DNA of 64,000 nt, from the NCBI GenBank assembly GCA_020619395.1, contig GCA_020619395.1_4860.1. One strand, 5' to 3'. The notes under the pieces are model-generated. The model saw only the letters and a program-made list of their open reading frames with translations. It did no database searches and was not told the origin of the DNA. The DNA comes from a phage. A program made the translations under genes and the position numbers. Of the stretch, positions 11,968 to 59,016 are shown piece after piece; positions within the stretch are counted from its first letter, which is position 1; each line of letters opens with the position of its first letter.

Positions 11968-12405
11968 TTAAGAAACGGTAAGACCGGCTTCTTTGATGTG
12001 GTTGTGAATCGTGTCGAAGTAGACTTCTTCGTAGTCTGTCACGCCACGTGTGTAATATTCGGGGGAACCTTCGTAGGCTTGCTGCCAGGGTTCGGAGCAT
12101 TTACTAGGATCAATCCGATACAGATGCAAGCTGTCCTGCATCGAAATATTGTTCCAGTAACCGTTCGATTTCAACAATAGCTCGTTGCCGCGCTGTTGTA
12201 CGCGTACGGAAGCGATAGGCTGCCCCGGTGCCGATGAACGATTAGTTCGACAGGCATACTCGATGCCCGCTTTAACCGCCTCTGCGCGCGTCGCATACGC
12301 TTCGAGGGTCGGTGTGTCAGTTCCAATACGGTCACCGTATAAGTCACGGTCAATCTGACTGGCTGACAGCACCTTCCAGTGGTACGGCAGCATCACCCAC
12401 AACAC
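11968..12405 (-). CDS. hypothetical protein
   Basis: 145-aa ORF in the same block. Confidence 0.5.
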   Translation of the reverse strand: MLWVMLPYHWKVLSASQIDRDLYGDRIGTDTPTLEAYATRAEAVKAGIEYACRTNRSSAPGQPIASVRVQQRGNELLLKSNGYWNNISMQDSLHLYRIDPSKCSEPWQQAYEGSPEYYTRGVTDYEEVYFDTIHNHIKEAGLTVS

Positions 12406-12431
12406 GCGAGGTGATGTGGACGAAGATTCCC

Positions 12432-13781: not shown

Positions 13782-13851
13782 TTAGACGTTCCTTTTAGAA
13801 AATACGTTACCCACAAATCAGTATAGCAGACACCATATTTGAGAGTAGACC

Positions 13852-15636
13852 ATGGAAATCAATACCTATTACGCACCCGAGGATGTCATCGCTAAAGAGT
13901 GCAAGCACGTCGCTTATGCGACGGACGAAGAAAAAGAAAATGACTTTGTCCTCATCAAAGAGGTCATCCATACTAAGGATGGCAGGCTTATCCCGCGCTT
14001 GGTAATGCGTGAGAATTTAAAGCGTCCGGTGTACGTTACCCGTGAAGAATATCGTAACCACCAGGAGAAAAAAGAGTTCGAAGAAAAAGGAAAATGTCAA
14101 GAACTCTGGACCACCGATGCACAAATGGCGAAGACGTTGCAGATGGGTTTAGGTGCACGTTTCCCTGACCCGAAAAAGAACCTGCGTCGTGTCTGTACTA
14201 GCCCGTACGTTTATTGGGCCGACTTACCGATTACCAGCTGGATTAAACAGAAATACTTAAAGCGCTGGCCGAACAATATCAGTCCTAACCGTCTTTGCGT
14301 ATACGACGTGGAGACTAACGAAATGGACGGCACGAAGGAACCGTGGATCGTGTCATTTATCTTAGACGACGAAATCCATTTCTTTGGTGCTAAGAACTAC
14401 ATGGACCGCATCGGTAAAAACGCGGAAGAAGTCATTCTCAAAAAAGCGCAGGAACTCTTAAGCAAAATCGAATTCGATGAGAAAGACAAAAAGACTGGCG
14501 AAAAGGTGACAAAGACCAAAGACATTATCAGTGGTTATAAAATCTTCACCTATACCTGCGCTACGGCAGGGCAGTGCATCGTCAGGATGTTCGAAGAGAT
14601 TCATCCGCGTCTTCCTGATTTGCTGGTCGCATGGAACCACCAGTTCGATATTTCACGCATGTTGGAAACCTTGCAGAAAGAAGGTATCGATCCACTGGGC
14701 GTCTTTAACCATCCGGATGTGCCGGAGAAATACCGTCGTCTGTGGTTTAAAGAAGACCAGGCGAACAAAAAGACGGAATCCAAGTCACTCACCAAAGCAC
14801 CGTCACAACAGTGGCACGTACTCTACTGTACTGCGTCTTTCTACTGTGTGGATGCCATGGTGTTATTCCGTTCGTTGCGTGTCCACGAAGGGCAACGTCC
14901 TTCGTACAAGTTATCTGCCATACTGTACACCGAACTCGGTTTACACAAACTCGACATTCCTGGACTGCCGTATGAAGATAACCTGCAATGGCACATAAAA
15001 GCACAACGGGACTACCCTGCCGAATATGCCGTATACAACATGATGGATAACTTGTTAATCGTGTTGTTGGATAAGAAGACGAACGACTTGTCTTCGGCAA
15101 TATCCATTCTGGCAGGTTTCTCGATGTACGATATCTTCCCGTCGCTACCAAAACGTATCTGCGTGGCCTTTACCTATTATCTGTATGACAAAGGATACGT
15201 CATCGGTTCCGTAGGGTCTGCAATGCGTAACGATTACGATGAAGAAGTTATCGGTACGGACGGTTGGATTGTTACCCTGACAGCATGTATGAATGCTGAG
15301 AACGGTCTGAACAACATTCTGGAGGAGATTGACGAATATTACTCTGCGTTCCGTGGACAAACTGCGGATGCGGACTTAACCCAGGCCTACCCTTCGGCCA
15401 CAAACATGATGAACCAGTCTCGTGAGACCACACTCATCGAACTACTGTCCATCAATGGGGTTAGTGAAGAGATTCGACGTCGCACGGGCGTCAACTTAAC
15501 TGCTGGGCGAGTTAATGCCATGGAAATAGCGACAGACTTCTTCTGCTTACCGGACAAAGACACTGTCCTGTCCACGTTCTTACGTAAGCAAGGGGAAGTA
15601 GTGACAGAGCCTATGGAGTACATCTGCGGGTTCTAA
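13852..15636 (+). CDS. DEDDy-type 3'-5' exonuclease domain protein; candidate proofreading part of a split family-B DNA polymerase
   Basis: 594-aa ORF with Exo I-like CVYDVETNE (D-x-E), Exo II-like WNHQFDISR (N-x3-F-D) and Exo III-like YNMMDNL (Y-x3-D) in the expected order. Confidence 0.5.
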   Translation: MEINTYYAPEDVIAKECKHVAYATDEEKENDFVLIKEVIHTKDGRLIPRLVMRENLKRPVYVTREEYRNHQEKKEFEEKGKCQELWTTDAQMAKTLQMGLGARFPDPKKNLRRVCTSPYVYWADLPITSWIKQKYLKRWPNNISPNRLCVYDVETNEMDGTKEPWIVSFILDDEIHFFGAKNYMDRIGKNAEEVILKKAQELLSKIEFDEKDKKTGEKVTKTKDIISGYKIFTYTCATAGQCIVRMFEEIHPRLPDLLVAWNHQFDISRMLETLQKEGIDPLGVFNHPDVPEKYRRLWFKEDQANKKTESKSLTKAPSQQWHVLYCTASFYCVDAMVLFRSLRVHEGQRPSYKLSAILYTELGLHKLDIPGLPYEDNLQWHIKAQRDYPAEYAVYNMMDNLLIVLLDKKTNDLSSAISILAGFSMYDIFPSLPKRICVAFTYYLYDKGYVIGSVGSAMRNDYDEEVIGTDGWIVTLTACMNAENGLNNILEEIDEYYSAFRGQTADADLTQAYPSATNMMNQSRETTLIELLSINGVSEEIRRRTGVNLTAGRVNAMEIATDFFCLPDKDTVLSTFLRKQGEVVTEPMEYICGF

Positions 15637-15688
15637 AACAAAAAAAAGAAAGGCCTCTCTACCCTAGGGTAGAGAGGTACTTTTATTT
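15636..15688. terminator. bidirectional rho-independent terminator
   Basis: Hairpin 15654-15677 (cctctctaccc / tagg / gtagagagg) with A-run 15636-15650 and T-run 15681-15687. Confidence 0.65.
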
Positions 15689-16262
15689 AACCGCCAAAGG
15701 CGTGCATAACCAGCGAACGCAGGTCCGGGTCGTTCAGGCGACGAGCCAGACGGTCAACATCGTTGGTATCACGGAAACGGCCTTTATCGGCGCAACGTGC
15801 GTAACGAATCAGCATGTTAATAAAGATAACGAAGACTTCACGCTCGTCACGATTCGGGAAGTTCTCACTGATACGGTTATTAGCAGCCGGTGCGTAGAAA
15901 ATACCGTTACGGTGCTTATTAGCCGCTTCTACAAAGGCGTAGAAACCGTCCAGGAAGGCCTGACCGCGCAGTTTAAACAGCTCACGGAAAGAGTGATGCA
16001 GCTTATTATACGCATCTTTCTCAGCCTGGGTACCAGATGCTTTACGTGGGCCGGCATTGTTACCTGCTTCATCGAGCATCGTGGTGATCAGTTTAACACG
16101 ATATTGGTCGTCGTTGCTGTAAGAAGCGCTATCACGGACCACGCCTTCTGTACGCGGGTCAAGGGTAGTAGTGTCTTTCTTAGTCATGAGGAAACAATCC
16201 TTAGGTGATGTGGAATTTAGGGATGTACTCTTTAACCACGGTTTCGCGACCGTGCATCGCAC
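15687..16262 (-). CDS. hypothetical protein
   Basis: 191-aa ORF; the start is uncertain because the ORF-track start overlaps the upstream gene by 62 nt (alternative Met at 16187). Confidence 0.45.
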   Translation of the reverse strand: MRCTVAKPWLKSTSLNSTSPKDCFLMTKKDTTTLDPRTEGVVRDSASYSNDDQYRVKLITTMLDEAGNNAGPRKASGTQAEKDAYNKLHHSFRELFKLRGQAFLDGFYAFVEAANKHRNGIFYAPAANNRISENFPNRDEREVFVIFINMLIRYARCADKGRFRDTNDVDRLARRLNDPDLRSLVMHAFGG

Positions 16263-17499
16263 CCATTGCAGTGGTCATAACGTTCGAGAAGCCGGAAGAG
16301 ATATCCGCAGCGATTGCCCGTGGCTCTTCTGCTTTGTGTGCAGAGGCGCACGCCGCACAACAGTCTACGTGACCTTGCTGACATAAGATGGGTCGGCGGA
16401 GTCGAACAACTTTACCAAATTGTGTTTTCAAATACTCTTCGGTGAGTTGGGTAACTTTACCGTTAATCATCGCGTTCATGCCAACATAACGCTTGTAGTT
16501 ATACTGGTTAATTACAAGTGCATGTGTCAGTTTTGTCCCGCAATCACCAGGTACGATTTTGTGGTTCTGGAAGATCATCTGGATGATACGTACTTGCTCC
16601 CCGCCCTTGGCAGTTTCTGCACCACGCATGAAGGAACCTTCTCGCGTATCATTGAACTTCTCTACCAGATACTTCATCCCGGTCTGATCAACTTCCATCA
16701 GACTCGTTGGGATTAAGGTAAAATCTGCACCTTCTTTAAAAGCGGTCTGAATACCATACATCAGCATCAGCTTACGGCGACGCATACGCGCTTTAGGAGA
16801 GCTGTAGAACTCAACGGACTGGTCGCCACTCAACCACTCTTTATCAAGTTCGTCGAGAGCTTTTTCAATCATAACGATAACCGCAGGGTTATCCAGTTCG
16901 TCTTTGTGCTTCAACAGCAACGCATCTCGTACCTTATACGCGTCAGGATGCGTTGTAAGGCTTCTAATAGTTCCTGTTGGGGCAATCCCACGACACAACG
17001 GAGCAAGCTCGTGTAGACCCCCTACAAAGCGTCCTATCATGTACGGTCGAATCGCGTCTTCGTTGTCTGGATCGGTGTCATCATATTCCACACAACGCTC
17101 ATACATCTCTTTACGGTAGGCTAGCGGGTCACGAGACTCTGCCAGATACGGGAGACGGGTACCGAAAGCGTAGTAGATAGCAATCCAGTTAAAGACATAG
17201 CGACCCACGGTAGTCGGAATGGGACCAGCTAAACCTGGGTACATCTCAGGACGCAATTCAAACTGCTCTTCCGGCACGAACAGCTCTTCATCTTTTTTGC
17301 ACCCTTCAATCGGCACCCACTTGGTTTCTTCGTTTTCCCAGTAGTGGGGTAAGCCGTCAATATAGTTCAGGTCGTATTGCTCAGGCGGCTCACCTTTTTC
17401 ATTAAAGATAGCCACGTTGAAAACCGCAATACGCCACACCAGTCTACGCCAAGCTTCTGCTTTACACGCAGCAACCAGATAATCAATCTTGTTCATCAT
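16201..17499 (-). CDS. hypothetical protein with a C-terminal Cys cluster
   Basis: 432-aa ORF; CQQGHVDCCAAC cysteine cluster near the C-terminus suggests metal binding; no further assignment. Confidence 0.55.
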   Translation of the reverse strand: MMNKIDYLVAACKAEAWRRLVWRIAVFNVAIFNEKGEPPEQYDLNYIDGLPHYWENEETKWVPIEGCKKDEELFVPEEQFELRPEMYPGLAGPIPTTVGRYVFNWIAIYYAFGTRLPYLAESRDPLAYRKEMYERCVEYDDTDPDNEDAIRPYMIGRFVGGLHELAPLCRGIAPTGTIRSLTTHPDAYKVRDALLLKHKDELDNPAVIVMIEKALDELDKEWLSGDQSVEFYSSPKARMRRRKLMLMYGIQTAFKEGADFTLIPTSLMEVDQTGMKYLVEKFNDTREGSFMRGAETAKGGEQVRIIQMIFQNHKIVPGDCGTKLTHALVINQYNYKRYVGMNAMINGKVTQLTEEYLKTQFGKVVRLRRPILCQQGHVDCCAACASAHKAEEPRAIAADISSGFSNVMTTAMGAMHGRETVVKEYIPKFHIT

Positions 17500-21479: not shown

Positions 21480-21863
21480 TTAACTTGCATCGTGTGGAAC
21501 AGTCACCCAATCGTGCCATTTTTCAGAGTAAAGACGATAAGCCATCTTTGGATTCTGATCGACGCTGCCGGCCGGGTTCTCATTCCACAACACGTACGTA
21601 TATAACTCGTACGACGAAGTGTTACGGATACTTGACGTGCGGGTGACGTAGTACGTCAACCCGCGTTGGTTAAGGAACAGGCCGCTGTAATGTTCAGTGA
21701 CCATGTAGTAGTGAAACGCCTGGTTGATAGTGGCGTCGGTGCAGAGTTTCTTAGCGACGTCTTCTACGCCGGGATACGCCTTTAGAATGTTTTCGAGAAA
21801 ACTTGCTAAAGTCATTCCGATGTAGGGTGGCAGCGGCTCTGCTGGACGCGGCGGAGTGAGCAT
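21480..21863 (-). CDS. small hypothetical ORF overlapping the 3' end of the helicase gene
   Basis: 127-aa ORF in another frame over 21751..21863; could be real or a shadow ORF. Confidence 0.25.
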   Translation of the reverse strand: MLTPPRPAEPLPPYIGMTLASFLENILKAYPGVEDVAKKLCTDATINQAFHYYMVTEHYSGLFLNQRGLTYYVTRTSSIRNTSSYELYTYVLWNENPAGSVDQNPKMAYRLYSEKWHDWVTVPHDAS

Positions 21864-24495
21864 GTGATTTCCTTACAACGTAGGGGGATGTCGCGATACG
21901 GAACGACAATACGACATCCTTGAGTGATTTCTGGCGGGCATTCAGGTAATTGCAATGCTTCGGTACGTTATACGCATGGAATAACCACACCGTTGGGTCT
22001 ATTTCACCCCACTCGTTGTGGAGAATCTTACGTGGACGACCGGCCATCTGTTCGTTCAGTTGCTGGTCTTCTACCGGGGTTGAGATGTACATGTGCACCA
22101 ACCCAGGTTTATCGACCGCAGTCCCCGCTTTCCCCGGTGTGGAGATAGAGAAGTCTGCTTGGATAAAGTCGTCATACGAATCGCCTGCATTATATTTCGC
22201 CACCATGAGTGGATGGAATACAGGGTCACGCGATAACTTATCTTTCACATACTCGGTAAAGAACTCACACATTGCAACCGTAGCAAATAGCAGCAAACAC
22301 TTCTGGCCGGGTTGATACCGTTTAAGGAACGATTTCTCAACCACATCCCAGATCATGTTCGCGTATTCTAAATGCAAGTTCTCTTTAATCAGCTTCCCTT
22401 CGAAGAGTTTGTGGTTATACGGCGTCATCTTCGACGCCCACCACGCGAACTTCTTATCATCCAGTCGATAGTACAACGCTTTCACGTCAACCACCGGAAT
22501 GATTGGAATACTGATTCGGTACTCCATTGGGAAGCGTTCTAAATACCGCTCCGCGATAAAGGCTTTACTGCTACCCGGTTTAAGAGTTGCAGACATCTCT
22601 ATCGATGCCGGCGGGTTCAACATTATACCAGCCATGTAAACGAGGTGAAAATGCTCGTGCACCTCATCCATCGCCACCAGACCCACACCCAGAACATCAT
22701 AAAACGTATCCAGGTCCACAGGGTTAGTCGCAGCAGTGTTAATGTACTCCTTCAGGAAACGCTGTAGAGAGACCGTGGGGAGGATTATTACCTTAATACC
22801 GCGTCTATCTAGCTCTCCCGACTTACCCATCTCCAGCGCGTCGTAAATCGCCTGTACGCCTGTACAAACTAACACCTCGTCACGAAGTATACGAAGTCCT
22901 GTTTCATCATCACAGACGTCAAACAGCCATTTGGGAACGTATGACGGACGGTGAATCAATGCGGTACGGGTTCCCCGTTTAACCATCGACTTCATACAGG
23001 TCTTGGTGTTGTGCGTAACGATCCACTTGTCCACCACAAACAACGCATCGTCGTTCTCGACACGAATACACGTGGCAAGATCACGACCAATGGGTTCGAT
23101 AGACTTAACACGGAGTTTCAGTATATCGGTGTATTGTCCGTTATCACGACACAGTTCTTTCTTCCTTGGAAGATGGAACAGTTTCGATGGTGTTTTGTGG
23201 CGGATGGAGACGTTATAAGCCAAACGACCTTCACGACGTTCGCCGTTGTGTGTGAAGAACGGACGTTTCTCGCGTAGTGTTGCAATCCCTCCTAAAGACC
23301 GCACAAGTTCCTGAACACCTAAAGCCAATTCTTTACTGGTGGAACAGAAAGAAGGCGTACCACCATCCTTATCCACAGTACCGTCAGTATCCATCAAGCC
23401 ACGCAACAACTCCCACCGTTGTTCGATGGACGTTTCGAAGTAATCTCCAGGTATGAACTTTTCCCAAGACCTGCAGCCAATTAACCCTAACCGCTCAAGC
23501 TCTCTGCGGACAAGGTTAACACCGCCGGGACAAGAGATGCACTTCGTTATCCCATCGCTGTACGATGAATCATGGATTGCATGTCCAGCGGGCATGACCT
23601 CAGCAACACGGTCACGAATCTCCACATCGCCTTTGGTGTATAAAACACCAGGCATCGATAGGGAGCCATCACCCAAGAGGATACCGAGTAAATACGGATG
23701 AATGACAAAATCCTTAGCTGGCTTTTCCTCTGGTTCTGGTAATGGGATGTATACCCGTGGATTAGGCATCGAAATTAAACGTTTCATCTCTAGGGTATCA
23801 CGTACACCCCAGCGACGATTCTCGGTGGTATTAACGTAGTAGCTTTGCCACAAGTGCTCGCCACATACGTCAACACTCCTACCATCCCAAAACGTCACCT
23901 GATACAGGTCAACCACACCCTGTGGGAACACTCCAGAGACCATTGCTGGTTTTCCGTCACGCCCCGTAACGTAATCACCTAGCTGTATATCCTCAATGTT
24001 CTTCCAACCACCCGGTACACGCACACGCGTACCATGCGCGAGAGCTTTTCCTCTTCCTGTTTGTATCGCGAAAACCGTTTGTGAGCGCGATGGATCTGTT
24101 GCGGCGGCTACGACTTCATTCTGATAATAGAAACGCGACTCTGGGTCTGTCTCTTCCATCTTGAATCCGTAATTATCAAACGTGCACTTATAAGGTGTTC
24201 CTCGTACAGGACGGTGCTCTGTTAGCTTGTACTGAAAAGCGTATTCAATTGCTGCTCGTTGGAGGATATGTTTAATCTTCTCAGCGAACACTTTATGGAA
24301 AATGAACGTCCTTAAAGACGGAATGTGGGCGTAGTACGCGTCACCGCGTTCCGTGGTTATTCGTCCATGTTGCTTGCCCATCTTTGGGGCGTGCATATTC
24401 TCTTCGGCCCACGCGAGTATGGCCCTTTCAGCCTGGCGGATAGGGACTTCAACCCGTACCCCCATACTCGTGTAAGTCATTTGAATTTCTACCAT
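21751..24495 (-). CDS. SF2 DExH-box helicase, intein-containing precursor
   Basis: Walker A is split as ...AIQTGRGK / TKTC... by the intein; downstream DEVH (motif II), MSATL (motif III) and QMAGRPRK (motif VI-like). Start set at ATG 24495 because the upstream gene's terminator (24512-24538) lies between it and the ORF-track start 24552. Confidence 0.65.
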   Translation of the reverse strand: MVEIQMTYTSMGVRVEVPIRQAERAILAWAEENMHAPKMGKQHGRITTERGDAYYAHIPSLRTFIFHKVFAEKIKHILQRAAIEYAFQYKLTEHRPVRGTPYKCTFDNYGFKMEETDPESRFYYQNEVVAAATDPSRSQTVFAIQTGRGKALAHGTRVRVPGGWKNIEDIQLGDYVTGRDGKPAMVSGVFPQGVVDLYQVTFWDGRSVDVCGEHLWQSYYVNTTENRRWGVRDTLEMKRLISMPNPRVYIPLPEPEEKPAKDFVIHPYLLGILLGDGSLSMPGVLYTKGDVEIRDRVAEVMPAGHAIHDSSYSDGITKCISCPGGVNLVRRELERLGLIGCRSWEKFIPGDYFETSIEQRWELLRGLMDTDGTVDKDGGTPSFCSTSKELALGVQELVRSLGGIATLREKRPFFTHNGERREGRLAYNVSIRHKTPSKLFHLPRKKELCRDNGQYTDILKLRVKSIEPIGRDLATCIRVENDDALFVVDKWIVTHNTKTCMKSMVKRGTRTALIHRPSYVPKWLFDVCDDETGLRILRDEVLVCTGVQAIYDALEMGKSGELDRRGIKVIILPTVSLQRFLKEYINTAATNPVDLDTFYDVLGVGLVAMDEVHEHFHLVYMAGIMLNPPASIEMSATLKPGSSKAFIAERYLERFPMEYRISIPIIPVVDVKALYYRLDDKKFAWWASKMTPYNHKLFEGKLIKENLHLEYANMIWDVVEKSFLKRYQPGQKCLLLFATVAMCEFFTEYVKDKLSRDPVFHPLMVAKYNAGDSYDDFIQADFSISTPGKAGTAVDKPGLVHMYISTPVEDQQLNEQMAGRPRKILHNEWGEIDPTVWLFHAYNVPKHCNYLNARQKSLKDVVLSFRIATSPYVVRKSHAHSAASSRAAATLHRNDFSKFSRKHSKGVSRRRRRR
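23008..24045 (-). mobile_element. intein (346 aa, class-3-like, with LAGLIDADG homing-endonuclease domain) in the helicase P-loop
   Basis: Block A ALAHGTRVRV starting with Ala (codon gct, - strand, 24043-24045); block B ...GEHLW; LAGLIDADG-like LLGILLGDGS and LLRGLMDTDGTV; block F DLATCIRV; block G WIVTHN followed by +1 Thr; excision restores TGRGKT. Confidence 0.7.
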
Positions 24496-24511
24496 GCTGC
24501 CCCTCTTCGCA

Positions 24512-24538
24512 CAAAAAAAGAGGGGCGCAAGGCCCCTC
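24512..24538 (-). terminator. rho-independent terminator after CDS 24542..26647
   Basis: Hairpin 24520-24538 (gaggggc / gcaa / ggcccctc) with + strand A-run 24512-24519. Confidence 0.55.
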
Positions 24539-24541
24539 GGT

Positions 24542-26647
24542 TTACAACTCAATTACCACAGCGGCTCCTAGGTCATCGTACAACGATGCCGGGATTTTGT
24601 ACTCGGTATAAAAACCAACGCGATCGATATTCCCCTGCTGTCCTTCAAACAACAACATCGGAATTGCCGAGCGCAAACTAATGAGCGTGTTGTGATCGAC
24701 AAACCGTTTCCCGGTGGCATTAGTAGAATCCTCACTGTCAAATCCTACTGCCGGGAACGGATTGGTTGGTGACTCTACACGAGATATCGCCAACATAATC
24801 GCAATGTGCGTCATCGGTATACCGCTCAGCTTACGCTGGATGTACTTAAACGTATCCATCAACGCATAAGTACACTGTTTCTCTGTAGCACCACCCATTT
24901 CAACCAACGTTACCGGTTTCACACGACCTTGTTTCTTGTTCAACTTCACAGTCGAGGCTGTGTTGATGATTTCCACAATGTCTTCGTTCTTATCGGCTGC
25001 GATTGAACGTAGCTTGGTTTCTAACCCTGCCACGAATTCTGCCATCGATTCAGAACGGTTGGTGTAGACCAGTACCGGGTGTTTCGGGTTCCATCCTTTC
25101 AAAGGAATCTGAACCGTCTTCTTCTCGATACGAATGTTCGCACGTTGTTTCAAGAAGTAATGCAAGAACGGTTTAGAGAAGTTCCCACAAACACCCATTC
25201 GCACATCGATAGAATCTGCAGCGATGATTTGCCCATCTTCTAAACGACGCTGGAATGTCAAGTCGGTGATTTCCGGCAATGCTGTTTCATCGATTGCATC
25301 GAGATCTTCATGATACGCAATCTGGCTCAGCTCCGAATAAACTTTGTCGGTAACGACCAACTCGTATTCTGACCAATTACCACGCTGTGGTTTTGGTAGC
25401 AAGCACAACCCTTTCAGAGAGTTATGTTTGTATTCGGTCATGTACTCACGCATTCTCGGCGTGAGTACCAGGTTGAGCAGATAACGCAAGAAGTCAAGGT
25501 GCTTGGTAGAGAGAATTCCCTGTGTACCCTTTTCCGAGATGGACGTGGACGCCAGGTGACCTGGTGACGTACCTTCAGAGAGGTTATAAATCAAATCCCC
25601 CATACAGGTCGCACAGATGGACTGATTCGCCATCTCTTTACAGGTCATGGCACTACGGAAGACCAGCGGTTTGCCAACCAGGTCTGCGTATCCGCCTTTC
25701 TCAAATCTCAACCACGGACCATTATCACCTTCTAAACGATAACGCATCCCCACCATCGCTTTATAGGCACGCTCATCCAGCTGCGTATCCTTAAACGTGT
25801 AGCGGTGTGCGTGAGTTGTACCGCAGTCGTCGTACGTGAAATACATCAGTACGTTTGCTGCCAACTGCAGTTTACGTGAGGCGTATTCTGCTTCGGCAAT
25901 CTTGTCAGTGTTGTACAAGTGGGAACGTGAAGTTGCACCGGATTCTTTCAAACGCGAAATAACCGAGTGCATTCCGGTAAAGAAGCCTTCCCACACCTGA
26001 TTGGTGTATACACGTGAGTCAATTTCTGACGTTTTACCACGCACGAAGGCTTGCAGTACCTGGTTCATCTTCACAGTACCGTCCAGTACCGACATCACGA
26101 CCGGGTTATACCGTAGCGCAGGGTCTTTGAAGATTTTCTCGATAAGCTTGTACGCTTCTTCAACCATATCCCGACCATCTTCATCGTAGCCAGTAGGATA
26201 TTGCACTTCCCACTGACGGATGAGTTCGAAGTTCGGATGGTCGTAGATCTCCATCATCGTATCAAAGTCGATTGTCGTACAATAGGACAGCAAGTTCTTC
26301 ACTGTCATGTTGAACGCATCGGCGTAGACATGTTGACTCAGGATATAACGCGTTTCAGCAAGGTCGACGCCTGCTTTACGGGCCAGTACCGCTGCTTCCG
26401 ACATAAAGTCCAGATGCAGGTCATCTGTTGCTACCTGACCTGGACGATACGCCATGGTCGATGGAGTGGGCACCTGCGGATACAGACGCGACACACCCCA
26501 ATACGGCCAGCTGAGTTTGATGTGGCGACTAGACATTTCCAACGACTTACCATCGTCGAATGTCACGTAATAACGCCCGCGTAGTTTCCACACCTGATCA
26601 GAGTTAAGCATACGCAAATCACGTACGTGTACAGAACGACCCGCCAT
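24542..26647 (-). CDS. multisubunit RNA polymerase beta-prime-like, C-terminal part (candidate)
   Basis: 701-aa ORF directly downstream of the beta-like gene; SEKGTQGILSTKH resembles the beta-prime trigger-loop motif E-P-GTQ-L-T-M-R-T-F-H (recalled); the rest is unassigned. Confidence 0.45.
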   Translation of the reverse strand: MAGRSVHVRDLRMLNSDQVWKLRGRYYVTFDDGKSLEMSSRHIKLSWPYWGVSRLYPQVPTPSTMAYRPGQVATDDLHLDFMSEAAVLARKAGVDLAETRYILSQHVYADAFNMTVKNLLSYCTTIDFDTMMEIYDHPNFELIRQWEVQYPTGYDEDGRDMVEEAYKLIEKIFKDPALRYNPVVMSVLDGTVKMNQVLQAFVRGKTSEIDSRVYTNQVWEGFFTGMHSVISRLKESGATSRSHLYNTDKIAEAEYASRKLQLAANVLMYFTYDDCGTTHAHRYTFKDTQLDERAYKAMVGMRYRLEGDNGPWLRFEKGGYADLVGKPLVFRSAMTCKEMANQSICATCMGDLIYNLSEGTSPGHLASTSISEKGTQGILSTKHLDFLRYLLNLVLTPRMREYMTEYKHNSLKGLCLLPKPQRGNWSEYELVVTDKVYSELSQIAYHEDLDAIDETALPEITDLTFQRRLEDGQIIAADSIDVRMGVCGNFSKPFLHYFLKQRANIRIEKKTVQIPLKGWNPKHPVLVYTNRSESMAEFVAGLETKLRSIAADKNEDIVEIINTASTVKLNKKQGRVKPVTLVEMGGATEKQCTYALMDTFKYIQRKLSGIPMTHIAIMLAISRVESPTNPFPAVGFDSEDSTNATGKRFVDHNTLISLRSAIPMLLFEGQQGNIDRVGFYTEYKIPASLYDDLGAAVVIEL

Positions 26648-28884
26648 TATTTATCCTCCCGAATTGGACGCACTAATTCAAAACCTTCACAGCGATGGAT
26701 GTTACGTATCATCCTGTCAATCTGCGAATCTCCCATTGGCAGTTTCTTACGATCGACCAGCACCCCCGGATTGGTTGGTGTTGGCGAGTTATACAGCCCC
26801 GTTACGATCGCACGGTGTACCGCAGGGTTATTAGCGCGGTCATGAGTTTCGGGGAAGTTGCCCGGACCAAAGCCGTCGGTAAGACGCTGCTCGGAAGGAC
26901 CACCCCACTTCAACCCTTTCAGGTTAATCGGATATGAACCACGTCCTTGGTTGGATGCATCAATACAACCCAAATAGTTCGTGTACATCGACGAGATACT
27001 GGAGAACTCACGACCGGTTTTATCCAGGCGCAGAGTCTCTACCATGCCGACGTAGAACTGGTTCTTCGTCCACTCTTTCTCACCCTGATAGTTAGTAATC
27101 AGTAGCTTAGACTTGCGTGGTGCATACTCGCCTAGAGCACGGCAGATTTCTACCTGGGTGGCATTCAATTCGTGGGGAAGCCAGATACGAATCGTGAAGT
27201 CGTAAATCTCTTTAAAGAGTTCCAGACGTGACTCAGTATCTGGGTGACTGGCATTGAGATAGAATGTCCAGCGTGGGTTATAGCGATCGATATAGTCCAT
27301 CAGGATTTCCCAGGCTTCATCAACCTGGTTGGCAGCAAGTAATGGTTTCAACCGCATCTTCAACTGCTCGGATGCAGCAGACCAATACATGTGGAACAGC
27401 GCAGCATAAGTCGAACGACGAATTACGGCGTTCATGGAACGAATGACATGCACACGTTCTCCGAACTCGTTAATCGGCATTTCTTCATCAGGCCGCACTG
27501 CACCCACGATACCTTTTGTACCTGAACGGTCGGTGATTTTCGATGAGACGGTAACTGGGATTGGATAACGTACCACGATGCGTATCGTGTAACTACCAAT
27601 TGGGTCCCAGAGACCACGCTGAACCGGCTGCGCCAGTTTGTTTAACACGTTCTTATCAGCAGAACGGTTATACTCGCCTTTGCGCATGGCTTCATCGTAT
27701 TCACGACCAATCTCTTCACGGAAGTCGTTATAGACTTCATACGTCTCAGAACAGAACGCCTTGTCAAGAATCTCAAACGCTTTCGGTGACCAGACAATAT
27801 TCTTGTCCTTGGACATCGCAAAATAGAACCGCACGATATCATTGTAAAAACGTTTCAAAGCGTTCGCGTAGTGATCTAACTCGCGTTTGTTCTCTTCGGT
27901 ACATGCGATATTGTTAACACCACGATCGCATTTGGTTTCGTCCCGCCATACCTGAATATCAACGACACGAGAACCAGTACGTTCCATCTTTTCAAAGTCG
28001 CCAGCCTGACGCGCTTTGTAATGCTCAGGGTCAGCATCAACATACTCACAACGGTCGAAGTGCGGAGAGATATGTTGTGTTTCACCTACGTGCGAGTCAA
28101 TGGCTGCCCATAGCTTATCGAAACGGCGCGCGGCAATAACCAACCCATCATCACGAATTGCCTGTCCTTTATTGGGCAGGTACTGTGGTCGACGAACGCC
28201 ATCAATACCCGTTGTCCCATACGTATCAAGCAGGTACTCGTCGTCGCGCAAGGTAAAGTCGATTGCACGCAAACCATAAGCGTGCATCGCTTTCGCTGCA
28301 GTTTCGGAGATGGTGTACGAGTCCTCGATAATGTCCGGGTGCGACATTGTCACAGTGTGCAGGTTGACCCCATCGACAAACTCACCGTCTTTCTGTGCCG
28401 GCAGTACGGTAAGCATTTCATCTTTTTCCAGGTGCTGCGTCTGCCCGCGCAGCAACGCCTGAAGTTTCCCAGTAGCCTCTTTCTTAGACGAGAAAATGTT
28501 ATCGTGGTTGGTGTAATACTTAATATCGATTACATCAATCATCACTTTGCGCTGGTTGGTTAAATCTGCGCGCGTGAAGAAGATAACATGCTGGAGCGGT
28601 TCGTGATCCCCTTCACGACCATAGCGTGCAAAAACAGCTGCACGAGTAACACCTTCTTTGGTTGTGTAACTGCACACGGTACCACTGTCTTCCACGATAT
28701 CGTTAAAACAATAATCGTGGTAGTTCACATCAGCGCCGGTAAAATGGATAGTCGGATCTGGATTGTCCAGTGGTACCGCCGACTTCATATGTCCACCCAC
28801 CATTGAGGCACGTGCCCCAGATACGCCAGTGATATTCACCTCACGGTCAGCAACGCTTGACATGAGTTCGACTGGTGTTTTCAT
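26647..28884 (-). CDS. multisubunit RNA polymerase beta-like subunit (C-terminal catalytic part)
   Basis: 745-aa ORF; ITDRSGTKGIVGAVRPDEEMPINEFGERVHVIRSMNAV lines up with the bacterial beta motif GDK-x-AGRHGNKGV-x(5-6)-EDMP-x(3-5)-G-x-x-VD-I-V-LNPLGV (recalled from E. coli RpoB). Confidence 0.7.
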   Translation of the reverse strand: MKTPVELMSSVADREVNITGVSGARASMVGGHMKSAVPLDNPDPTIHFTGADVNYHDYCFNDIVEDSGTVCSYTTKEGVTRAAVFARYGREGDHEPLQHVIFFTRADLTNQRKVMIDVIDIKYYTNHDNIFSSKKEATGKLQALLRGQTQHLEKDEMLTVLPAQKDGEFVDGVNLHTVTMSHPDIIEDSYTISETAAKAMHAYGLRAIDFTLRDDEYLLDTYGTTGIDGVRRPQYLPNKGQAIRDDGLVIAARRFDKLWAAIDSHVGETQHISPHFDRCEYVDADPEHYKARQAGDFEKMERTGSRVVDIQVWRDETKCDRGVNNIACTEENKRELDHYANALKRFYNDIVRFYFAMSKDKNIVWSPKAFEILDKAFCSETYEVYNDFREEIGREYDEAMRKGEYNRSADKNVLNKLAQPVQRGLWDPIGSYTIRIVVRYPIPVTVSSKITDRSGTKGIVGAVRPDEEMPINEFGERVHVIRSMNAVIRRSTYAALFHMYWSAASEQLKMRLKPLLAANQVDEAWEILMDYIDRYNPRWTFYLNASHPDTESRLELFKEIYDFTIRIWLPHELNATQVEICRALGEYAPRKSKLLITNYQGEKEWTKNQFYVGMVETLRLDKTGREFSSISSMYTNYLGCIDASNQGRGSYPINLKGLKWGGPSEQRLTDGFGPGNFPETHDRANNPAVHRAIVTGLYNSPTPTNPGVLVDRKKLPMGDSQIDRMIRNIHRCEGFELVRPIREDK

Positions 28885-28913
28885 TCGTAAATGCTCCTTT
28901 TGGTTACCTCGGT

Positions 28914-28930
28914 AAGATAATATCTATCTG
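28914..28930. promoter_or_regulatory. recurrent AGATAATATCTATCT-type promoter-like motif
   Basis: aagataatatctatctg between divergent starts 28884 (-) and 28951 (+); same motif family as 32657, 34073, 42181, 42274, 50184, 53150. Confidence 0.3.
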
Positions 28931-28950: not shown

Positions 28951-29274
28951 ATGCTAGATAAATTTGCTACCTTATCCGAAATAATACCTTCGCCTGATTC
29001 GACCAAGTATAAGGTGTTGCATGACTATACAGACTTCCTTCGCAAACACCCAGATACTACAGAAGAAGTTGTTGACCCAAAATATGCCTACCCAGAGGTA
29101 CACAGTTTCTACGCGTACTGTCGTCTCAAACAGTACGATAATAGTATTATTTATCCGATGATGTTAATGAACGGAATTTCTACTCCGTTTGATTTCACGC
29201 CAGAGATAAGAACCTTATTGGTTCCTAGTGTCGGCGTGGTAAGTAACATCTTATCGACTATCGTAGAATCTTGA
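28951..29274 (+). CDS. small hypothetical protein
   Basis: 107-aa ORF with AAGGAGAG Shine-Dalgarno 7 nt upstream, followed by a terminator. Confidence 0.55.
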   Translation: MLDKFATLSEIIPSPDSTKYKVLHDYTDFLRKHPDTTEEVVDPKYAYPEVHSFYAYCRLKQYDNSIIYPMMLMNGISTPFDFTPEIRTLLVPSVGVVSNILSTIVES

Positions 29275-29311: not shown

Positions 29312-30679
29312 TTAACGTAAATTAGCTGATGAGAATGGTAGGTTGCCTAAACTGCTGCTACTTCCGCCACCTAAACCACCCAGACCACCTAACACGTCAC
29401 TACTCCCTCCTAAGAGGTTGGTGCTACCGCCGCCCAACTGCGTGCTACCCCCCAAGAGATTATTACTACTTCCCAGCAAACCAGAACCCAGACCACTTTC
29501 TTTCGTCACCGCATTACCACGCAGCGCCTCACCGAGAGACAGTTCTTTAATTGTCCCTTTCGGTAAATGGCCGTTGTTCTCACGCAGCGCTTCCTGAATC
29601 TTCGGTGCTAACGCATTGAAGCTATTAGCTGAAGACGCCTGTTGCGCTTTCTTCGCACGGAAATAGTTTACCGGATCGTTGAGATCAAGATTTTCCTGCG
29701 GAGCTTGTTGAGAAGCTAAAGCAACGACCGGCTTTGTGCCGGCAGGTGTACGCCCGATACGGAAATCCGTTGCGGTGGTGTCTGTTGCCTGATCGGTGCG
29801 TGGGCCGGTATTATACGGCAGAGTTTGGATAACGTTATCATAAACGCTCATGTTATCCAGTTGGCCAATCCATTCTTCTTCTAACGGACGCAGTGGAGTG
29901 TGGTCACGCAGACCACGAACCACTTGATTGTAGTTGGTCACGTATTGTGCCCAACCGCGTGCCAAAGAACCGAAGTACGGACGCGGATCGTTAGAACCAG
30001 TAACCGAAGGATACCAACCAAACACTGCAGTTAGCAGGTTAAAGATAATGACCTTATCCTGCTTACGCTGGAGCTTGGCACCGAAGAATGTTGCCGTACC
30101 ATCCAGTGACTCTTCTTCAAACATGTGTTTGTAGTTCGCCACACGGATATATTTGATACCTTCAATGGTCATATCGCTGGAGATGAAGATACTGGTGATC
30201 TTTGTCTTTTTATCTTCTTCCAGCAACCCGTAAACGTAGTTCTTCACTGCGTGCCAGCTCTGAACCAGTTTCTTATCCATCGTTGGATCTTTCAGGTCAG
30301 CACAAACCACATCGCTTAAAAACTTCTTGTACGCTGCCAGACGGATATTTTTTCCTTCGGCTGCTGTTTCCAAAATCGCATCGATTAGCTCGAAGCTTTT
30401 CAGGAAGAGGTTCGCGTTGATGGCTTTCTTCAGGAAACGAATCGTTCCAGATTCGCCAGCCAGCACCGATTCACACAGCGGGTGGAACGCATGACATTCA
30501 CTACCTTCGTCATCTTCCAACCCACGCTTAATCATCGCTGCAGTTGGAAGCACCAAGCGGCGCTTCACTTTGTTGTAGGTGAACATTGCCGGATGACCAT
30601 CATCGATAGTCAGCATGTCACCTTCGAATCCGTATCCGAGCGAGGTCAGAAACGAACGGTAGAATTCAATCAATTTCAT
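29312..30679 (-). CDS. hypothetical protein with Gly/Leu/Ser-rich C-terminal tail
   Basis: 455-aa ORF; last ~60 aa are LGSGLLGSSNNLLGGSTQLGGGSTNLLGGSSDVLGGLGGLGGG... low-complexity repeats. Confidence 0.6.
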   Translation of the reverse strand: MKLIEFYRSFLTSLGYGFEGDMLTIDDGHPAMFTYNKVKRRLVLPTAAMIKRGLEDDEGSECHAFHPLCESVLAGESGTIRFLKKAINANLFLKSFELIDAILETAAEGKNIRLAAYKKFLSDVVCADLKDPTMDKKLVQSWHAVKNYVYGLLEEDKKTKITSIFISSDMTIEGIKYIRVANYKHMFEEESLDGTATFFGAKLQRKQDKVIIFNLLTAVFGWYPSVTGSNDPRPYFGSLARGWAQYVTNYNQVVRGLRDHTPLRPLEEEWIGQLDNMSVYDNVIQTLPYNTGPRTDQATDTTATDFRIGRTPAGTKPVVALASQQAPQENLDLNDPVNYFRAKKAQQASSANSFNALAPKIQEALRENNGHLPKGTIKELSLGEALRGNAVTKESGLGSGLLGSSNNLLGGSTQLGGGSTNLLGGSSDVLGGLGGLGGGSSSSLGNLPFSSANLR

Positions 30680-30691
30680 GGTTAATAATCC

Positions 30692-32392
30692 TTAATCAAT
30701 GAGACCGTTGCCGAGTCCGTTTCCGCCTATACCGCCTAAGCCACCACCCAGGTCAAGACCTCCAAGAGGATCTAAGCCACCTGTGTTAGTTGGAATGTTA
30801 GATAGCATTCGACCCCGGCCTTGGCCTTTCTCGAATTCTGTATAACCTTCTTCCACGGCTTTCAACAGCGTTGCGGTGTTCTGTGCCAGCTCACCAACGT
30901 ATTTGAGATCGGTGGTGTTGCCGGTATGGAGACGGAATTGCATAAACGACGCGTAGGTGTAATATTCCAGCGGTTCGTCGTCGACACGGATTTCAATACG
31001 AGTAACGGTCCCCAACAATGCGGTGACCAGCATGTGGCAGCGAATATGGTTATGTTTAGTAACCTGAACCATCGCTTCTTTCATGTTCTGCAAGAAACGA
31101 CGACCTAACGCAGCAGGTAACTGATGGTGCGTGATGCTGCTGACTGAGTTAGGAATAACTTCCAGCGTAGGCTCTATCATGATATCTGTGTTGCGGTTAT
31201 CAAAGACAAAGCTCACTTCACCAATCAGGTTACGTGACATAATCGGCCCGATAGACATAGCCAGATCATACGCAACTAGACTACCCTGCGTGGAGAAGCC
31301 ATTACGTCCAATCCAGTGGTCGGTTTGGTTAACCAGCCCTGCACCCAACCCACGGCGACTTGCCAGCGCCAGCGATTCACGGATACATTCATCCAACCGC
31401 ATTGGGTTGACAATCGCATTACGCAAATCAGCCAAACGGAACGTCGCCTTACTGGTTGCTTTCCAGCCGCCAGATACATCAGACATCCCGTTCTGGAGTG
31501 CTTGACGCATCGCAGCAATCAGTTCGTGGTTGCTGTAGTTACGGATAACACCACGTTGCTTCAATTCAGATTCAACGCCGATGGAGTTATTACCTGCAAA
31601 GAAGCTTTCCACGCTACCGAGTTCGGTATCTACCCCAGAGCTTGCCAGATACGCATTACTGATGGCAGATACGTAGTTTTCTGGACGCTGGAGTTGGGAT
31701 ACCATCAACTGTGGTGCAGAGCTACTGGTTGCGGATAGCACAGAGTCGCTCGTTGGGACGAACTTCTCACCGCTATTCATTTCAATACGTTTTACCATAT
31801 CCGCCGCTTTCGCGATCGAAATGATATCTACCGTACTTTCCGTTTGACCTTCAACAGACAGCGCTTTCGATAAAACGTAGTTATCCAGTAGACGGAATGA
31901 GTCTGGGTTCAATGTTTTGCCGCCCAGGGCATCGTGTGTATACGTTGCCTGTAAGCCGTAGATGTCGTTAATGTACAACACCATATCGTCAGGCAGCAAG
32001 CTACCCAGGCTGGTTTCTGCCTGACTGGTATAACCGGATACGATGTATTGCGTTTCCTGAGTGCGTGTTGCATTCAGAGGTTTAGCAATAAACACCGCCA
32101 CGAAGTTAAAGATACCGGTATCACGTGATTCCCATTGGAACTGTACAGGACGATTGTCATCATCGGACACGTTGATGAATGGACGCTCAAAACCATTCTG
32201 GGTGCCATCGAAGCCCACGATGGCAGATAATGCTTCTTGATACTGCTGTGTTCCCACAGCTTTTTCCCCGCCCAGTTCAACCGCTGCTGCTAAGTCATCC
32301 AGTGCACCCGTCGATGCGTTAAAGCCGATGCGGCGACGAACTTGCTCTGGAACATCGTAGACCGGATACATCAGTAGATTTACAAGCTGCAT
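30692..32392 (-). CDS. hypothetical protein with Gly-rich C-terminal tail
   Basis: 566-aa ORF ending ...TGGLDPLGGLDLGGGLGGIGGNGLGNGLID, similar in style to the tail of 29312..30679. Confidence 0.6.
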   Translation of the reverse strand: MQLVNLLMYPVYDVPEQVRRRIGFNASTGALDDLAAAVELGGEKAVGTQQYQEALSAIVGFDGTQNGFERPFINVSDDDNRPVQFQWESRDTGIFNFVAVFIAKPLNATRTQETQYIVSGYTSQAETSLGSLLPDDMVLYINDIYGLQATYTHDALGGKTLNPDSFRLLDNYVLSKALSVEGQTESTVDIISIAKAADMVKRIEMNSGEKFVPTSDSVLSATSSSAPQLMVSQLQRPENYVSAISNAYLASSGVDTELGSVESFFAGNNSIGVESELKQRGVIRNYSNHELIAAMRQALQNGMSDVSGGWKATSKATFRLADLRNAIVNPMRLDECIRESLALASRRGLGAGLVNQTDHWIGRNGFSTQGSLVAYDLAMSIGPIMSRNLIGEVSFVFDNRNTDIMIEPTLEVIPNSVSSITHHQLPAALGRRFLQNMKEAMVQVTKHNHIRCHMLVTALLGTVTRIEIRVDDEPLEYYTYASFMQFRLHTGNTTDLKYVGELAQNTATLLKAVEEGYTEFEKGQGRGRMLSNIPTNTGGLDPLGGLDLGGGLGGIGGNGLGNGLID

Positions 32393-32404: not shown

Positions 32405-34039
32405 TTAAGAATTAAACCATTCAACTTCTTCTAACTTGCGACGTGCATTCAACACCATAAACTCCGCCAGGCTATTGTGCAGTGACAAGTGAGGTATATA
32501 GTTTGGCTGATCCGTCTCACACTTCAGCAGCGCAGCTGCTTCTGGTGTAGCCCTGAGATGGAACAGATACGGGTTGATGTGATCCTTGTGTAACAAGGTC
32601 AATGATTCCCGTGGTGTAGATTGCGGTTCGAGATTACGCGGGTTGCGATACTCCTGAAGATAATATCTATCTAAATCTGCTTTGAGTTCAGATCGAATTG
32701 GGTCGGCTGCATAACCGGCAGACATCTCAGAACGCACCATATTGCAACTTAACAGTTGCGCAACGTCATACATTCCATAATTGAGATAAGTTGCCTGTGC
32801 CAACGCCATACCGTAGCGAAACGCTTCTGGTCCACATTCAGTATACGTCTTATAATGCGCGCTACGATGGAGTGCTAATGCGACTAACCATTCGTGCAAC
32901 GTATAGACAGGACCGTCATGTGTTGCCAGTTGCGAATCAATCAATAACTTAACATCTGCTGGAGCGGCATTATCCAGACGCATTGTTTTCAAGAAAGAGC
33001 GGTATTCTTTAAATACGTACTCGGTACGGACGTATTCTTTCATCTGTGCAGGAGAACGTGCCTGCACCAAATCCATGGCGTTTATCTTACCCTTTTCGCC
33101 ATTGAATACCACACTTTCCGGATGCGCTTTTAACAGCACCGGCTGGTTAGAGATTTTGTTTGCAAAACCTGTTTCAATCTCTTGTTTAACCAGAAAATAC
33201 ATGCCGGTGACGATATTGTTGTTAACCATGATTTCAACCGGTAATTCACCACCGACTTCACGGACAGCCAACAATTTAATAATAGCATACGCCAGGATAT
33301 AATCTTCCATCATATCCGTGCCATAGCCCCGCACCGTAGCCAGTACCGACAAACTGGTGCTGTTCGTACCTTTGTTTGCCAGTTCTTTTTCTACCTTTTC
33401 CATCACTGTCTGTAGGAACCCACGCAGTTTCGGAATAGCAGGTAAAGACATGACTTCCGTGTCTTGAAGCATCTCCAGACAGTATGTCAGATTGTACACC
33501 ATTTTCCGGTGTGTTTCGATTGGCAAGTTCTTACCTATCGGGAACGTCCCCATGGTGAGGAACACCGGAATATACGGTTTAATCATCAGGACCAGTATCA
33601 ACAACTCGTAATAGTCCGGACGAATGTACGTCATCGCTTCCGGATAATTACTGTTCATTTCATCGTGCGTATCTTCCATGTTCTGCGGAATCCACAGCTT
33701 ATCGATGGGATACAGCTTACGATACACTTCGGCCTTGTGGAACTTCGCAATCGTCTGCACAATCTTCGGCATGTGCTTACGCTGCGTTTCCGTCGATTCG
33801 TTTGCCAGCTCGTCCAGCATCAGATACGCCATGAACAGTTCATCTTGTTCGTCTGGCGTTAAATAATCCCACACGCGTTGTAATTCCATGAAGAGAATGT
33901 TGTCGCGTGCAATCTGTTTACCTTTAACAGTGATGTAGTCGGGTGCGTTGTTATCCTTCCGATAACGTAAGCCAATAAATGTGACCTCTTGACCATGATG
34001 CTCGATTGTCATCCGGTCTTTAATCTTCATAATTTTCAT
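32405..34039 (-). CDS. hypothetical protein
   Basis: 544-aa ORF; promoter-like motif 26-40 bp upstream (34073-34089). Confidence 0.6.
   Translation of the reverse strand: MKIMKIKDRMTIEHHGQEVTFIGLRYRKDNNAPDYITVKGKQIARDNILFMELQRVWDYLTPDEQDELFMAYLMLDELANESTETQRKHMPKIVQTIAKFHKAEVYRKLYPIDKLWIPQNMEDTHDEMNSNYPEAMTYIRPDYYELLILVLMIKPYIPVFLTMGTFPIGKNLPIETHRKMVYNLTYCLEMLQDTEVMSLPAIPKLRGFLQTVMEKVEKELANKGTNSTSLSVLATVRGYGTDMMEDYILAYAIIKLLAVREVGGELPVEIMVNNNIVTGMYFLVKQEIETGFANKISNQPVLLKAHPESVVFNGEKGKINAMDLVQARSPAQMKEYVRTEYVFKEYRSFLKTMRLDNAAPADVKLLIDSQLATHDGPVYTLHEWLVALALHRSAHYKTYTECGPEAFRYGMALAQATYLNYGMYDVAQLLSCNMVRSEMSAGYAADPIRSELKADLDRYYLQEYRNPRNLEPQSTPRESLTLLHKDHINPYLFHLRATPEAAALLKCETDQPNYIPHLSLHNSLAEFMVLNARRKLEEVEWFNS
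32657..32673. promoter_or_regulatory. intragenic copy of the AGATAATATCTATCT-type motif
   Basis: gaagataatatctatct inside the 3' end of CDS 32405..34039, about 265 bp upstream of the start of 30692..32392. Confidence 0.25.
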
Positions 34040-34072: not shown

Positions 34073-34089
34073 GAGATAATATCTATCTC
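34073..34089. promoter_or_regulatory. AGATAATATCTATCT-type promoter-like motif
   Basis: gagataatatctatctc in the intergenic region upstream of minus-strand start 34039. Confidence 0.3.
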
Positions 34090-42180: not shown

Positions 42181-42194
42181 AGATAATATCTGCC
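42181..42194. promoter_or_regulatory. AGATAATATCT promoter-like motif upstream of the chimallin-candidate gene
   Basis: agataatatctgcc, 47-60 bp upstream of minus-strand start 42134. Confidence 0.3.
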
Positions 42195-58958: not shown

Positions 58959-59009
58959 CAAAAAAATAAAAAAAAATAAGATTGGCGTACTCCCCGAAGA
59001 GAGTACGCC
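58959..59009 (-). terminator. rho-independent terminator after CDS 59017..59571
   Basis: Hairpin 58984-59009 (ggcgtactc / cccgaaga / gagtacgcc) with a long + strand A-run 58959-58980. Confidence 0.6.
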
Positions 59010-59016
59010 TAGTGAC

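Follow-up and report, generated by a model that had tools for sequence, protein, structure and literature searches.

Positions 24542..28884 of a 64,000-nucleotide stretch of phage DNA (contig GCA_020619395.1_4860.1, here called the window) are exactly filled by two head-to-tail open reading frames (ORFs), both on the minus strand, which overlap by one base. With a probability that we put at roughly 95%, this pair is a two-gene operon of an SPN3US-like nucleus-forming jumbo phage, coding for the C-terminal halves of beta and beta-prime in that phage's non-virion RNA polymerase (nvRNAP). Homology shows both what the enzyme is composed of and that its catalytic apparatus is conserved. The genes are already known, annotated and published for phage SPN3US, and nothing about them is new.

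The source of the DNA is an SPN3US-like Salmonella jumbo phage of Seoulvirus, with 98-99% nucleotide identity. A megablast search of the interval against phage genomes matched 51 records; in 31 of these a single match spanned at least 80% of the interval, and 34 of the 51 were at least 95% identical. The top matches were Salmonella phage 1252 (99.2%), Escherichia phage vB_EcoM_Lh1B (99.1%), the SPFM phages (98.8%) and SPN3US (97.9%), the window being slightly closer to the first two than to SPN3US.

The two C-terminal halves and their catalytic residues

The two genes and the functional elements that alignment locates in their products are the following.

26647..28884, minus strand: C-terminal half of the beta-like subunit of the nvRNAP, 745 amino acids, transcribed first; orthologue of SPN3US gp34 and phiKZ gp71-73
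27475..27546, minus strand: beta active-site block, S447-S-K-I-T-D-R-S-G-T-K-G458 and D466-E-E-M-P470, aligned with E. coli
24542..26647, minus strand: C-terminal half of the beta-prime-like subunit of the nvRNAP, 701 amino acids; orthologue of SPN3US gp35 and phiKZ gp74
25850..25963, minus strand: bridge-helix region, approximately residues 229-266 of the beta-prime C-half, from alignment to phiKZ gp74 L242-Y279
25604..25831, minus strand: zinc-binding cysteines C275, C336, C345 and C348 of the beta-prime C-half, from alignment
25493..25570, minus strand: trigger helix and loop, residues 360-385 (...SEKGTQGILSTKHLD) of the beta-prime C-half, from alignment

The gene transcribed first had been called beta-like in a first-pass annotation made from the DNA letters. 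Its homology to the beta subunit of RNA polymerase (RNAP) was confirmed and the description could be narrowed. Residues 4-681 of its profile correspond to E. coli RpoB 657-1291 (hhalign probability 98.9%, E 4e-17), and the gene therefore encodes specifically the C-terminal half of beta. In the PHROG database the protein belongs to phrog_3295, 'RNA polymerase beta subunit' (E 1.6e-268), and with 24.4 bits it exceeds the gathering cutoff of 23.4 for the Pfam family RNA_pol_Rpb2_6 (PF00562). The PDB search returned chain C of the phiKZ enzyme (7ogp_C, gp71-73; E 2.2e-29) and the AR9 chain 7s00_C (E 1.6e-8). The protein is identical at 744 of 745 residues to SPN3US gp34, which is entered in GenBank (SPN3US_0034) as 'putative DNA-directed RNA polymerase beta subunit 2'. 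The window gene begins at the conserved ...DANRALMGANMQRQAVP segment, whose sequence in this phage is VSGARASMVGGHMKSAVP.

The catalytic block GDK...HG-x-KG/EDMP that had been assigned to this gene is present, but in the degenerate form SSK...SGTKG/DEEMP. In the hhalign alignment the segment SSK449-ITDRSGTK457G...DEEMP470 matches the E. coli segment GDKMAGRHGNKG (GDK-MAGRHGNKG)...EDMP column by column. The lysines K449 and K457 align with K386 and K394 of phiKZ gp71-73, the two conserved lysines highlighted in the phiKZ structure paper (PMC8287921). Conservation was followed in alignments of 25 homologues for the beta C-half and 27 for the beta-prime C-half, at 20-89% identity; homologues of 689-757 amino acids are kept across many phages. 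Both lysines, as well as G458 and M469, are invariant in all 25 beta sequences, at identities down to 22%.

The second gene product belongs to phrog_3015 (E 1.1e-240) and matches phiKZ gp74, chain D of the same structure (7ogp_D), over residues 8-548 with E 8.9e-39. Its profile aligns at residues 192-385 with E. coli RpoC 732-938 (hhalign probability 92.8%, E 3.9e-7). The protein differs from SPN3US gp35 at one position (700 of 701 residues identical), and SPN3US_0035 is labeled as the beta' (beta-prime) subunit in GenBank. Both proteins thus gave RpoB/RpoC profile matches, and the phiKZ chains that had been named as comparators (gp71-73, gp74 and gp55) are exactly those matched by the two C-halves and by the beta-prime N-half described below. 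This agrees with the first-pass proposal of a fragmented multisubunit RNAP of the phiKZ type. Weaker PDB matches of the window proteins were to the nvRNAP of AR9 as well as to beta, beta-prime and gamma chains from bacteria and cyanobacteria.

Three elements of the active centre can be placed on the beta-prime C-half. The bridge-helix region aligns both with phiKZ gp74, for which the helix limits L242-Y279 were taken from PMC8287921, and with the E. coli beta-prime segment found by hhalign. The four cysteines C275, C336, C345 and C348 are invariant in the 27 homologues and align with C288, C341, C350 and C353 of phiKZ gp74 as well as with four cysteines of the matching E. coli segment, which by our count along the hhalign alignment are C814, C888, C895 and C898. 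The trigger region aligns with phiKZ gp74 T365-V383...H388 and with E. coli GEPGTQLTMRTFHIG. Within it, G374-TQGILSTKH383 (25499..25528) corresponds to the E. coli trigger loop GTQLTMRTFH, ending at H936, and the longer stretch SEKGTQGILSTKH383 was aligned by hhalign with GEPGTQLTMRTFH. The trigger-loop-like GTQ...T-x-H segment noticed earlier in this gene is the counterpart of the E. coli beta-prime trigger loop, and in the trigger region as a whole residues Q376, L379, S380, K382, H383, L384 and D385 are invariant.

Remaining subunits and expression signals

Two further subunits of the enzyme are encoded in the window.

38603..40198, minus strand: N-terminal half of the beta-prime subunit, 531 amino acids; orthologue of SPN3US gp23 and phiKZ gp55
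32405..34039, minus strand: sigma-like fifth subunit of the phiKZ gp68 family, 544 amino acids; orthologue of SPN3US gp30

The beta-prime N-terminal gene had been recognized correctly at 38603..40198. Its product carries the catalytic motif NGDFDGDQ at residues 455-462 (38813..38836), aligned to NADFDGDQ, and belongs to phrog_2987 (E 9.8e-180). In the PDB it matches phiKZ gp55 (7ogp_A, E 1.4e-38), AR9 nvRNAP (E 2.3e-8) and, at about E 1e-4, many bacterial beta-prime chains, plus cyanobacterial gamma chains. It is identical to SPN3US gp23 at 530 of 531 residues.

The gp68-like subunit was absent from the earlier list of polymerase genes. With a single sequence the ORF matched 7ogp_B ('PHIKZ068') at E 2.8e-6, and with a 17-sequence profile at E 1.4e-18, the aligned parts (profile 39-464, chain 32-448 of 521) covering about 80% of both. 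A tblastn search gave phiKZ gp68 with E 5e-12 at the syntenic position. SPN3US gp30, with 98% identity, is annotated as hypothetical. In phiKZ, gp68 is an integral sigma-like subunit required for assembly of the active centre and for promoter binding (PMC8287921). The two large genes between the gp68-like and beta genes, 29312..30679 and 30692..32392, were also considered as the fifth subunit and dropped, since neither had a PDB or Pfam match and only 32405..34039 matched gp68.

The N-terminal half of beta had been reported as not identified in the window, and our searches agree with this: SPN3US gp77, which matches 7ogp_E (PHIKZ123, the beta N-half) with E 3e-20, gave only E > 0.8 by tblastn and no blastn match in the window. 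By collinearity with SPN3US the gene would sit about 17 kb past window position 1, at the low end, and this accounts for its absence from the earlier reading. When every other window ORF of at least 150 amino acids was scanned against PHROG, no RNAP fragment was returned besides the virion piece at 16201..17499 that is discussed below. By homology, four of the five nvRNAP genes are located in the window.

The signals that may govern expression of the gene pair are listed here.

28912..28929, minus strand: AT-rich motif AGATAGATATTATCTTAC, ending about 27 nucleotides upstream of the beta-gene ATG; candidate early promoter
26645..26649, minus strand: TAATG stop/start overlap preceded by GGGAGGA, read from the sequence
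24510..24538, minus strand: terminator-like hairpin GAGGGGC-CTTGC-GCCCCTC followed by TTTTTTT, starting 3 nucleotides past the beta-prime stop codon
Ends at 28915, 32658, 34074, 42181, 42274, 50184, 53150 and about 91, minus strand: sites of the AT-rich motif

The TAATG overlap suggests that translation of the beta and beta-prime halves is coupled. The same junction is found in Erwinia phage phiEaH2. In the record of that phage the beta-prime C-half is annotated as hypothetical at 13750..15642, from a downstream start, within a gene region of 13750..15870; since the TAATG junction at about 15855 is conserved at the end of the upstream gene, the true start is suggested to lie some 70 codons further upstream.

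The beta gene is separated from a small divergent ORF (28951..29274) by a 66-bp intergenic region that holds the AT-rich motif. With up to two mismatches allowed, the 12-mer TAGATATTATCT occurs 21 times where 3.4 occurrences were expected, a number that no shuffle out of 100 attained. Since the motif is quasi-palindromic, every strong site enters this count twice, once per strand. There are seven distinct minus-strand sites with at most one mismatch; an eighth, at 102, has two mismatches and the same flank. The extended form AGA-TAGATATTATCT-nnGTGA is common to all eight. Each is situated 5' of a minus-strand gene, and seven stand immediately upstream of a start codon. The sites at 28915..28926, 34074..34085 and 42181..42192 precede the beta gene, the gp68-like gene and gp22, respectively, and another, at 32658..32669, is located inside the gp68-like coding sequence. 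At three corresponding positions the motif is conserved in phiEaH2, which belongs to a different genus.

Early promoters of jumbo phages have a conserved AT-rich motif of about 10 nucleotides centred near -10 that is read by the virion RNAP, and early-promoter motifs of a similar kind were already predicted bioinformatically for RNAP-encoding jumbo phages (PMC7598289). The nvRNAP subunits are reported as early genes (PMC13282480). By analogy, the quasi-palindromic AGATAGATATTATCT motif may be the early promoter of the injected virion polymerase in Seoulvirus and Erskinevirus, a proposal to which we give even odds. When the surroundings of the operon were scanned for sigma-70 promoters, 5 sites turned up where 7.6 were expected, so that promoters of the host type are unsupported. 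As for the downstream hairpin, the sequence CCCTCTTTTTTT is found again after other minus-strand genes. Together, the AT-rich motif upstream and the terminator downstream suggest a two-gene early operon.

Non-virion enzyme, virion enzyme or remnant

Jumbo phages of this group have two split polymerases, one of which is packaged in the virion and one not (PMC7598289). The ORF that belongs to the packaged enzyme is the following.

16201..17499, minus strand: middle piece of the virion-RNAP beta-prime; orthologue of SPN3US gp42 and phiKZ gp80 (structural head protein)

The two polymerases are paralogous, and PHROG names both 'RNA polymerase beta subunit'; furthermore, a weak match (E 1.7e-6) links the beta-prime C-half to the virion family phrog_2962. 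One could thus propose that the products of the pair are subunits of the polymerase packaged in the virion (vRNAP), which is injected together with the DNA and carries out early transcription. We regard this as very improbable, since the best, full-length matches of both proteins are chains of the purified phiKZ non-virion enzyme. In a tblastn comparison against the 50-100 kb region of phiKZ, the beta-prime C-half matched gp74 with E 3e-40 over residues 9-680, but its match to the virion protein gp80 spanned 78 residues and reached only E 3e-4. It is the other ORF, 16201..17499 (phrog_2962, E 1e-175; tblastn to phiKZ gp80, E 3e-35), that is the true gp80 orthologue, and on sequence similarity this ORF is a paralogue of the beta-prime C-half. 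Work on SPN3US itself points in the same direction. By virion proteomics its vRNAP consists of gp241, gp218, gp240, gp42 and gp244, whereas gp35 was named the nvRNAP beta-prime subunit and gp77 the nvRNAP beta N-fragment; moreover, the virion beta-prime is in three pieces and lacks the attached C-terminal a17-a20 region that gp35 has (PMC5105663). Because the window proteins are closer to the phiKZ nvRNAP chains and gp74 than to gp80, we assigned the genes to the non-virion enzyme. The text portion of the supplementary tables of PMC5105663 has no entries for gp30, gp34, gp68 or nvRNAP, and a literature search on SPN3US with gp34/gp35 yielded nothing besides that paper.

Still less probable is that the ORFs are decayed or non-catalytic RNAP remnants, that is, pseudo-enzymes or structural proteins. 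Such a view could appeal to the low identity to the E. coli subunits (about 20% to RpoB, and 27% to RpoC over a short aligned stretch), to the fact that two of the three Pfam matches are sub-threshold, and to the motifs that deviate from the textbook forms (SSK for GDK, SGTKG for HGNKG, EEMP for EDMP and NGDFDGD for NADFDGD). However, the ORFs are intact and full-length, with homologues of similar size retained in many phages, and the two lysines, the DFDGD aspartates, the four zinc cysteines and the trigger-loop histidine are all invariant. In addition, the phiKZ and AR9 orthologues are biochemically active with the same degenerate motifs (PMC8287921, PMC7598289).

Some points also weigh against the operon of nvRNAP C-halves that we prefer. 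The hhalign match to RpoC spans just residues 192-385 of the 701-residue beta-prime C-half, and the sub-threshold Pfam scores are 17.0 bits for this protein (gathering cutoff 28.5) and 21.1 bits for the beta-prime N-half (gathering cutoff 25.3). The beta N-half of this genome falls outside the window. Activity, subunit stoichiometry, expression timing, localisation to the nucleus and resistance to rifampicin are carried over from phiKZ, AR9, RAY and SPN3US, and the promoter role of the AT-rich motif is one that we infer. Furthermore, no such motif immediately precedes the beta-prime N-half gene, which comes just after a terminator-like hairpin and so may rely for its transcription on read-through from the gp22 promoter. 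Nothing that contradicts the assignment was found.

If the two genes encode nvRNAP C-halves, their expression and function could proceed as follows. The injected virion RNAP would transcribe the genes early in infection from the promoter-like motif at about 28912-28929, the two halves would be translated in a coupled fashion via TAATG, and transcription would stop at the hairpin at 24510-24538. By analogy with related phages, the subunits would then be imported into the phage nucleus; nucleus formation has been reported for SPN3US (PMC13282480). The active enzyme would consist of five polypeptides, namely the beta N-half (gp77), the beta C-half, the beta-prime N-half, the beta-prime C-half and the gp68-like protein. 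It would assemble without alpha or omega, the gp68-like protein probably serving as the factor for assembly and promoter recognition. The predicted Mg-binding DFDGD is on the beta-prime N-half, and the bridge helix, zinc site and trigger loop would be contributed by the beta-prime C-half. With its catalytic residues conserved, the enzyme should add nucleotides by the usual two-barrel cycle. In phiKZ and AR9 the nvRNAP is not packaged but produced once infection has begun; it transcribes the middle and late genes and is rifampicin-resistant (PMC7598289, PMC8287921), and for SPN3US the corresponding evidence is virion proteomics (PMC5105663). Likewise, the enzyme encoded here may transcribe the phage's middle and late genes without the host polymerase and resist rifampicin.

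Known relatives, neighbouring features and significance

SPN3US is the reference for the gene pair. It agrees with the window in gene order, in the stop/start overlap and in the flanking genes, GenBank already labels both of its genes as RNAP beta and beta-prime, and the nvRNAP is discussed in PMC5105663; the differences in the pair amount to a few silent or single-residue changes. The window as a whole is collinear with SPN3US in reversed orientation, with three indels. Among these, about 460 extra bases are present in the window at 11975..12450, and about 310 extra bases are present in SPN3US at window position 43716.

The five-polypeptide architecture and the split points are the same in the phiKZ nvRNAP (gp55, gp68, gp71-73, gp74 and gp123; PDB 7OGP, 7OGR, 8QUE and 9RJS), which was purified and solved by cryo-electron microscopy (PMC8287921). 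Both sets of proteins also have the catalytic lysines, bridge helix, zinc site, trigger loop and DFDGD in common, at an identity of only about 20-27%. By tblastn, the window from 12.4 to 38 kb is collinear with phiKZ gp62-gp84. The shared order comprises the SbcD-like nuclease gp65, gp66, gp68, gp70, the beta C-half gp71/73, the beta-prime C-half gp74, the helicase gp75, gp77, the virion beta-prime fragment gp80, the DNA polymerase gp82 and gp84. The gp55 orthologue (38603..40198) lies just beyond this block. As in the window, the two C-half genes of phiKZ stand side by side and are followed by the helicase gene. In phiKZ, however, the beta C-half gene is interrupted by gp72, with gp71 and gp73 annotated as separate ORFs, and gp55 is interrupted by the HNH endonuclease gp56, whereas both window genes are continuous. 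Also unlike phiKZ, the window has the small divergent gene 28951..29274 between the upstream genes and the beta gene. The order beta C-half, beta-prime C-half and SF2 helicase is found in the Erwinia phages phiEaH2 and RAY as well; in RAY the corresponding products gp248-gp250 (nvRNAP beta-2, beta-prime-2 and the adjacent SF2 helicase) all localise to the phage nucleus (PMC10299810).

The nvRNAP of Bacillus phage AR9 (PDB 7S00, 7S01 and 7UM0) likewise has split beta and beta-prime subunits and a fifth, promoter-specificity subunit. It is much more distant: the phage is not nucleus-forming, its promoters contain uracil in the template strand (PMC7598289), and the beta-prime C-half gave no AR9 match at E <= 0.01 in the PDB sequence search. 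With cellular RNAP, exemplified by E. coli RpoB and RpoC, the phage halves have the double-psi beta-barrel core and conserved regions in common. Their profile similarity is significant for domain 6 of RpoB and for regions F-G of RpoC, and the catalytic residues are there. A large subunit is naturally split in cyanobacterial RNAP too (gamma/beta-prime), and archaeal subunits likewise. The phage enzyme differs from the cellular ones in that both large subunits are split, alpha and omega are missing and the sigma-like factor is integral (PMC8287921).

Several other features of the window were noted. Just downstream of the beta-prime C-half, the SF2 helicase gene (21751..24495, minus strand) contains an intein at 23008..24045, in contrast to the SPN3US helicase gene, which has none. 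The intein has 346 amino acids and a LAGLIDADG motif, and interrupts the P-loop (TGRGK|T); its first residue is Ala and its end reads THN|T. The extein of 568 amino acids equals the intein-less SPN3US gp36 in length. The intein occurs in 5 of 40 related phage records (SPLA3, SPLA5c, Lh1B, JN03 and EC001), and we take the positions of its Trp (CGEHLW), Cys (TCIRVE) and Thr (VTHN) to resemble those of class-3 inteins.

The DNA polymerase is split into two distant genes on opposite strands, 13852..15636 (plus) and 43764..46043 (minus), which belong to phrog_3011 and phrog_2927 and match PF20286 'Divergent Family B DNA polymerase' (E 4e-284); of these, the plus-strand piece corresponds to phiKZ gp82. 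The protein encoded at 40281..42134, which is SPN3US gp22 at the position of phiKZ gp54, was considered as a chimallin, the shell protein of the phage nucleus; a sequence search of the PDB gave no match at E <= 0.01 and Pfam nothing meaningful. A region of about 1.75 kb (57250..59010) lacks ORFs of at least 150 amino acids and has a quasi-palindromic, almost pure A+T core of about 110 bp (58220..58330) flanked by the GC-rich segments CGCGCGCGCC and GCGCACGCGCACGCG. By collinearity it is situated about 0.7 kb beyond the start/end point of the SPN3US GenBank record, and it may be an origin or a terminus-related region. The window also holds a single tRNA gene.

56014..56089, minus strand: tRNA-Trp (CCA)

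Some SPFM records (LR535901, LR535903-LR535908, LR535911-LR535913 and LR535917) match the window only as 17-27 short pieces, and their 'hypothetical proteins' combine high hidden Markov model scores with 3-24% BLAST coverage. This fragmentation looks like a problem of sequence or annotation quality rather than biology.

The AGATAGATATTATCT promoter reading alone goes beyond the SPN3US GenBank annotation and the cited papers. If it is true, the nvRNAP genes would form an early regulon that includes an internal promoter, which would still be a small addition. Correct annotation of the interval marks the window as that of an SPN3US-group nucleus-forming jumbo phage and places four of the five genes for host-independent late transcription. 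Enzymes of this type are of interest as minimal RNAPs, without alpha or omega and with an integrated sigma-like subunit, and that interest attaches to the published work on phiKZ, AR9 and SPN3US.

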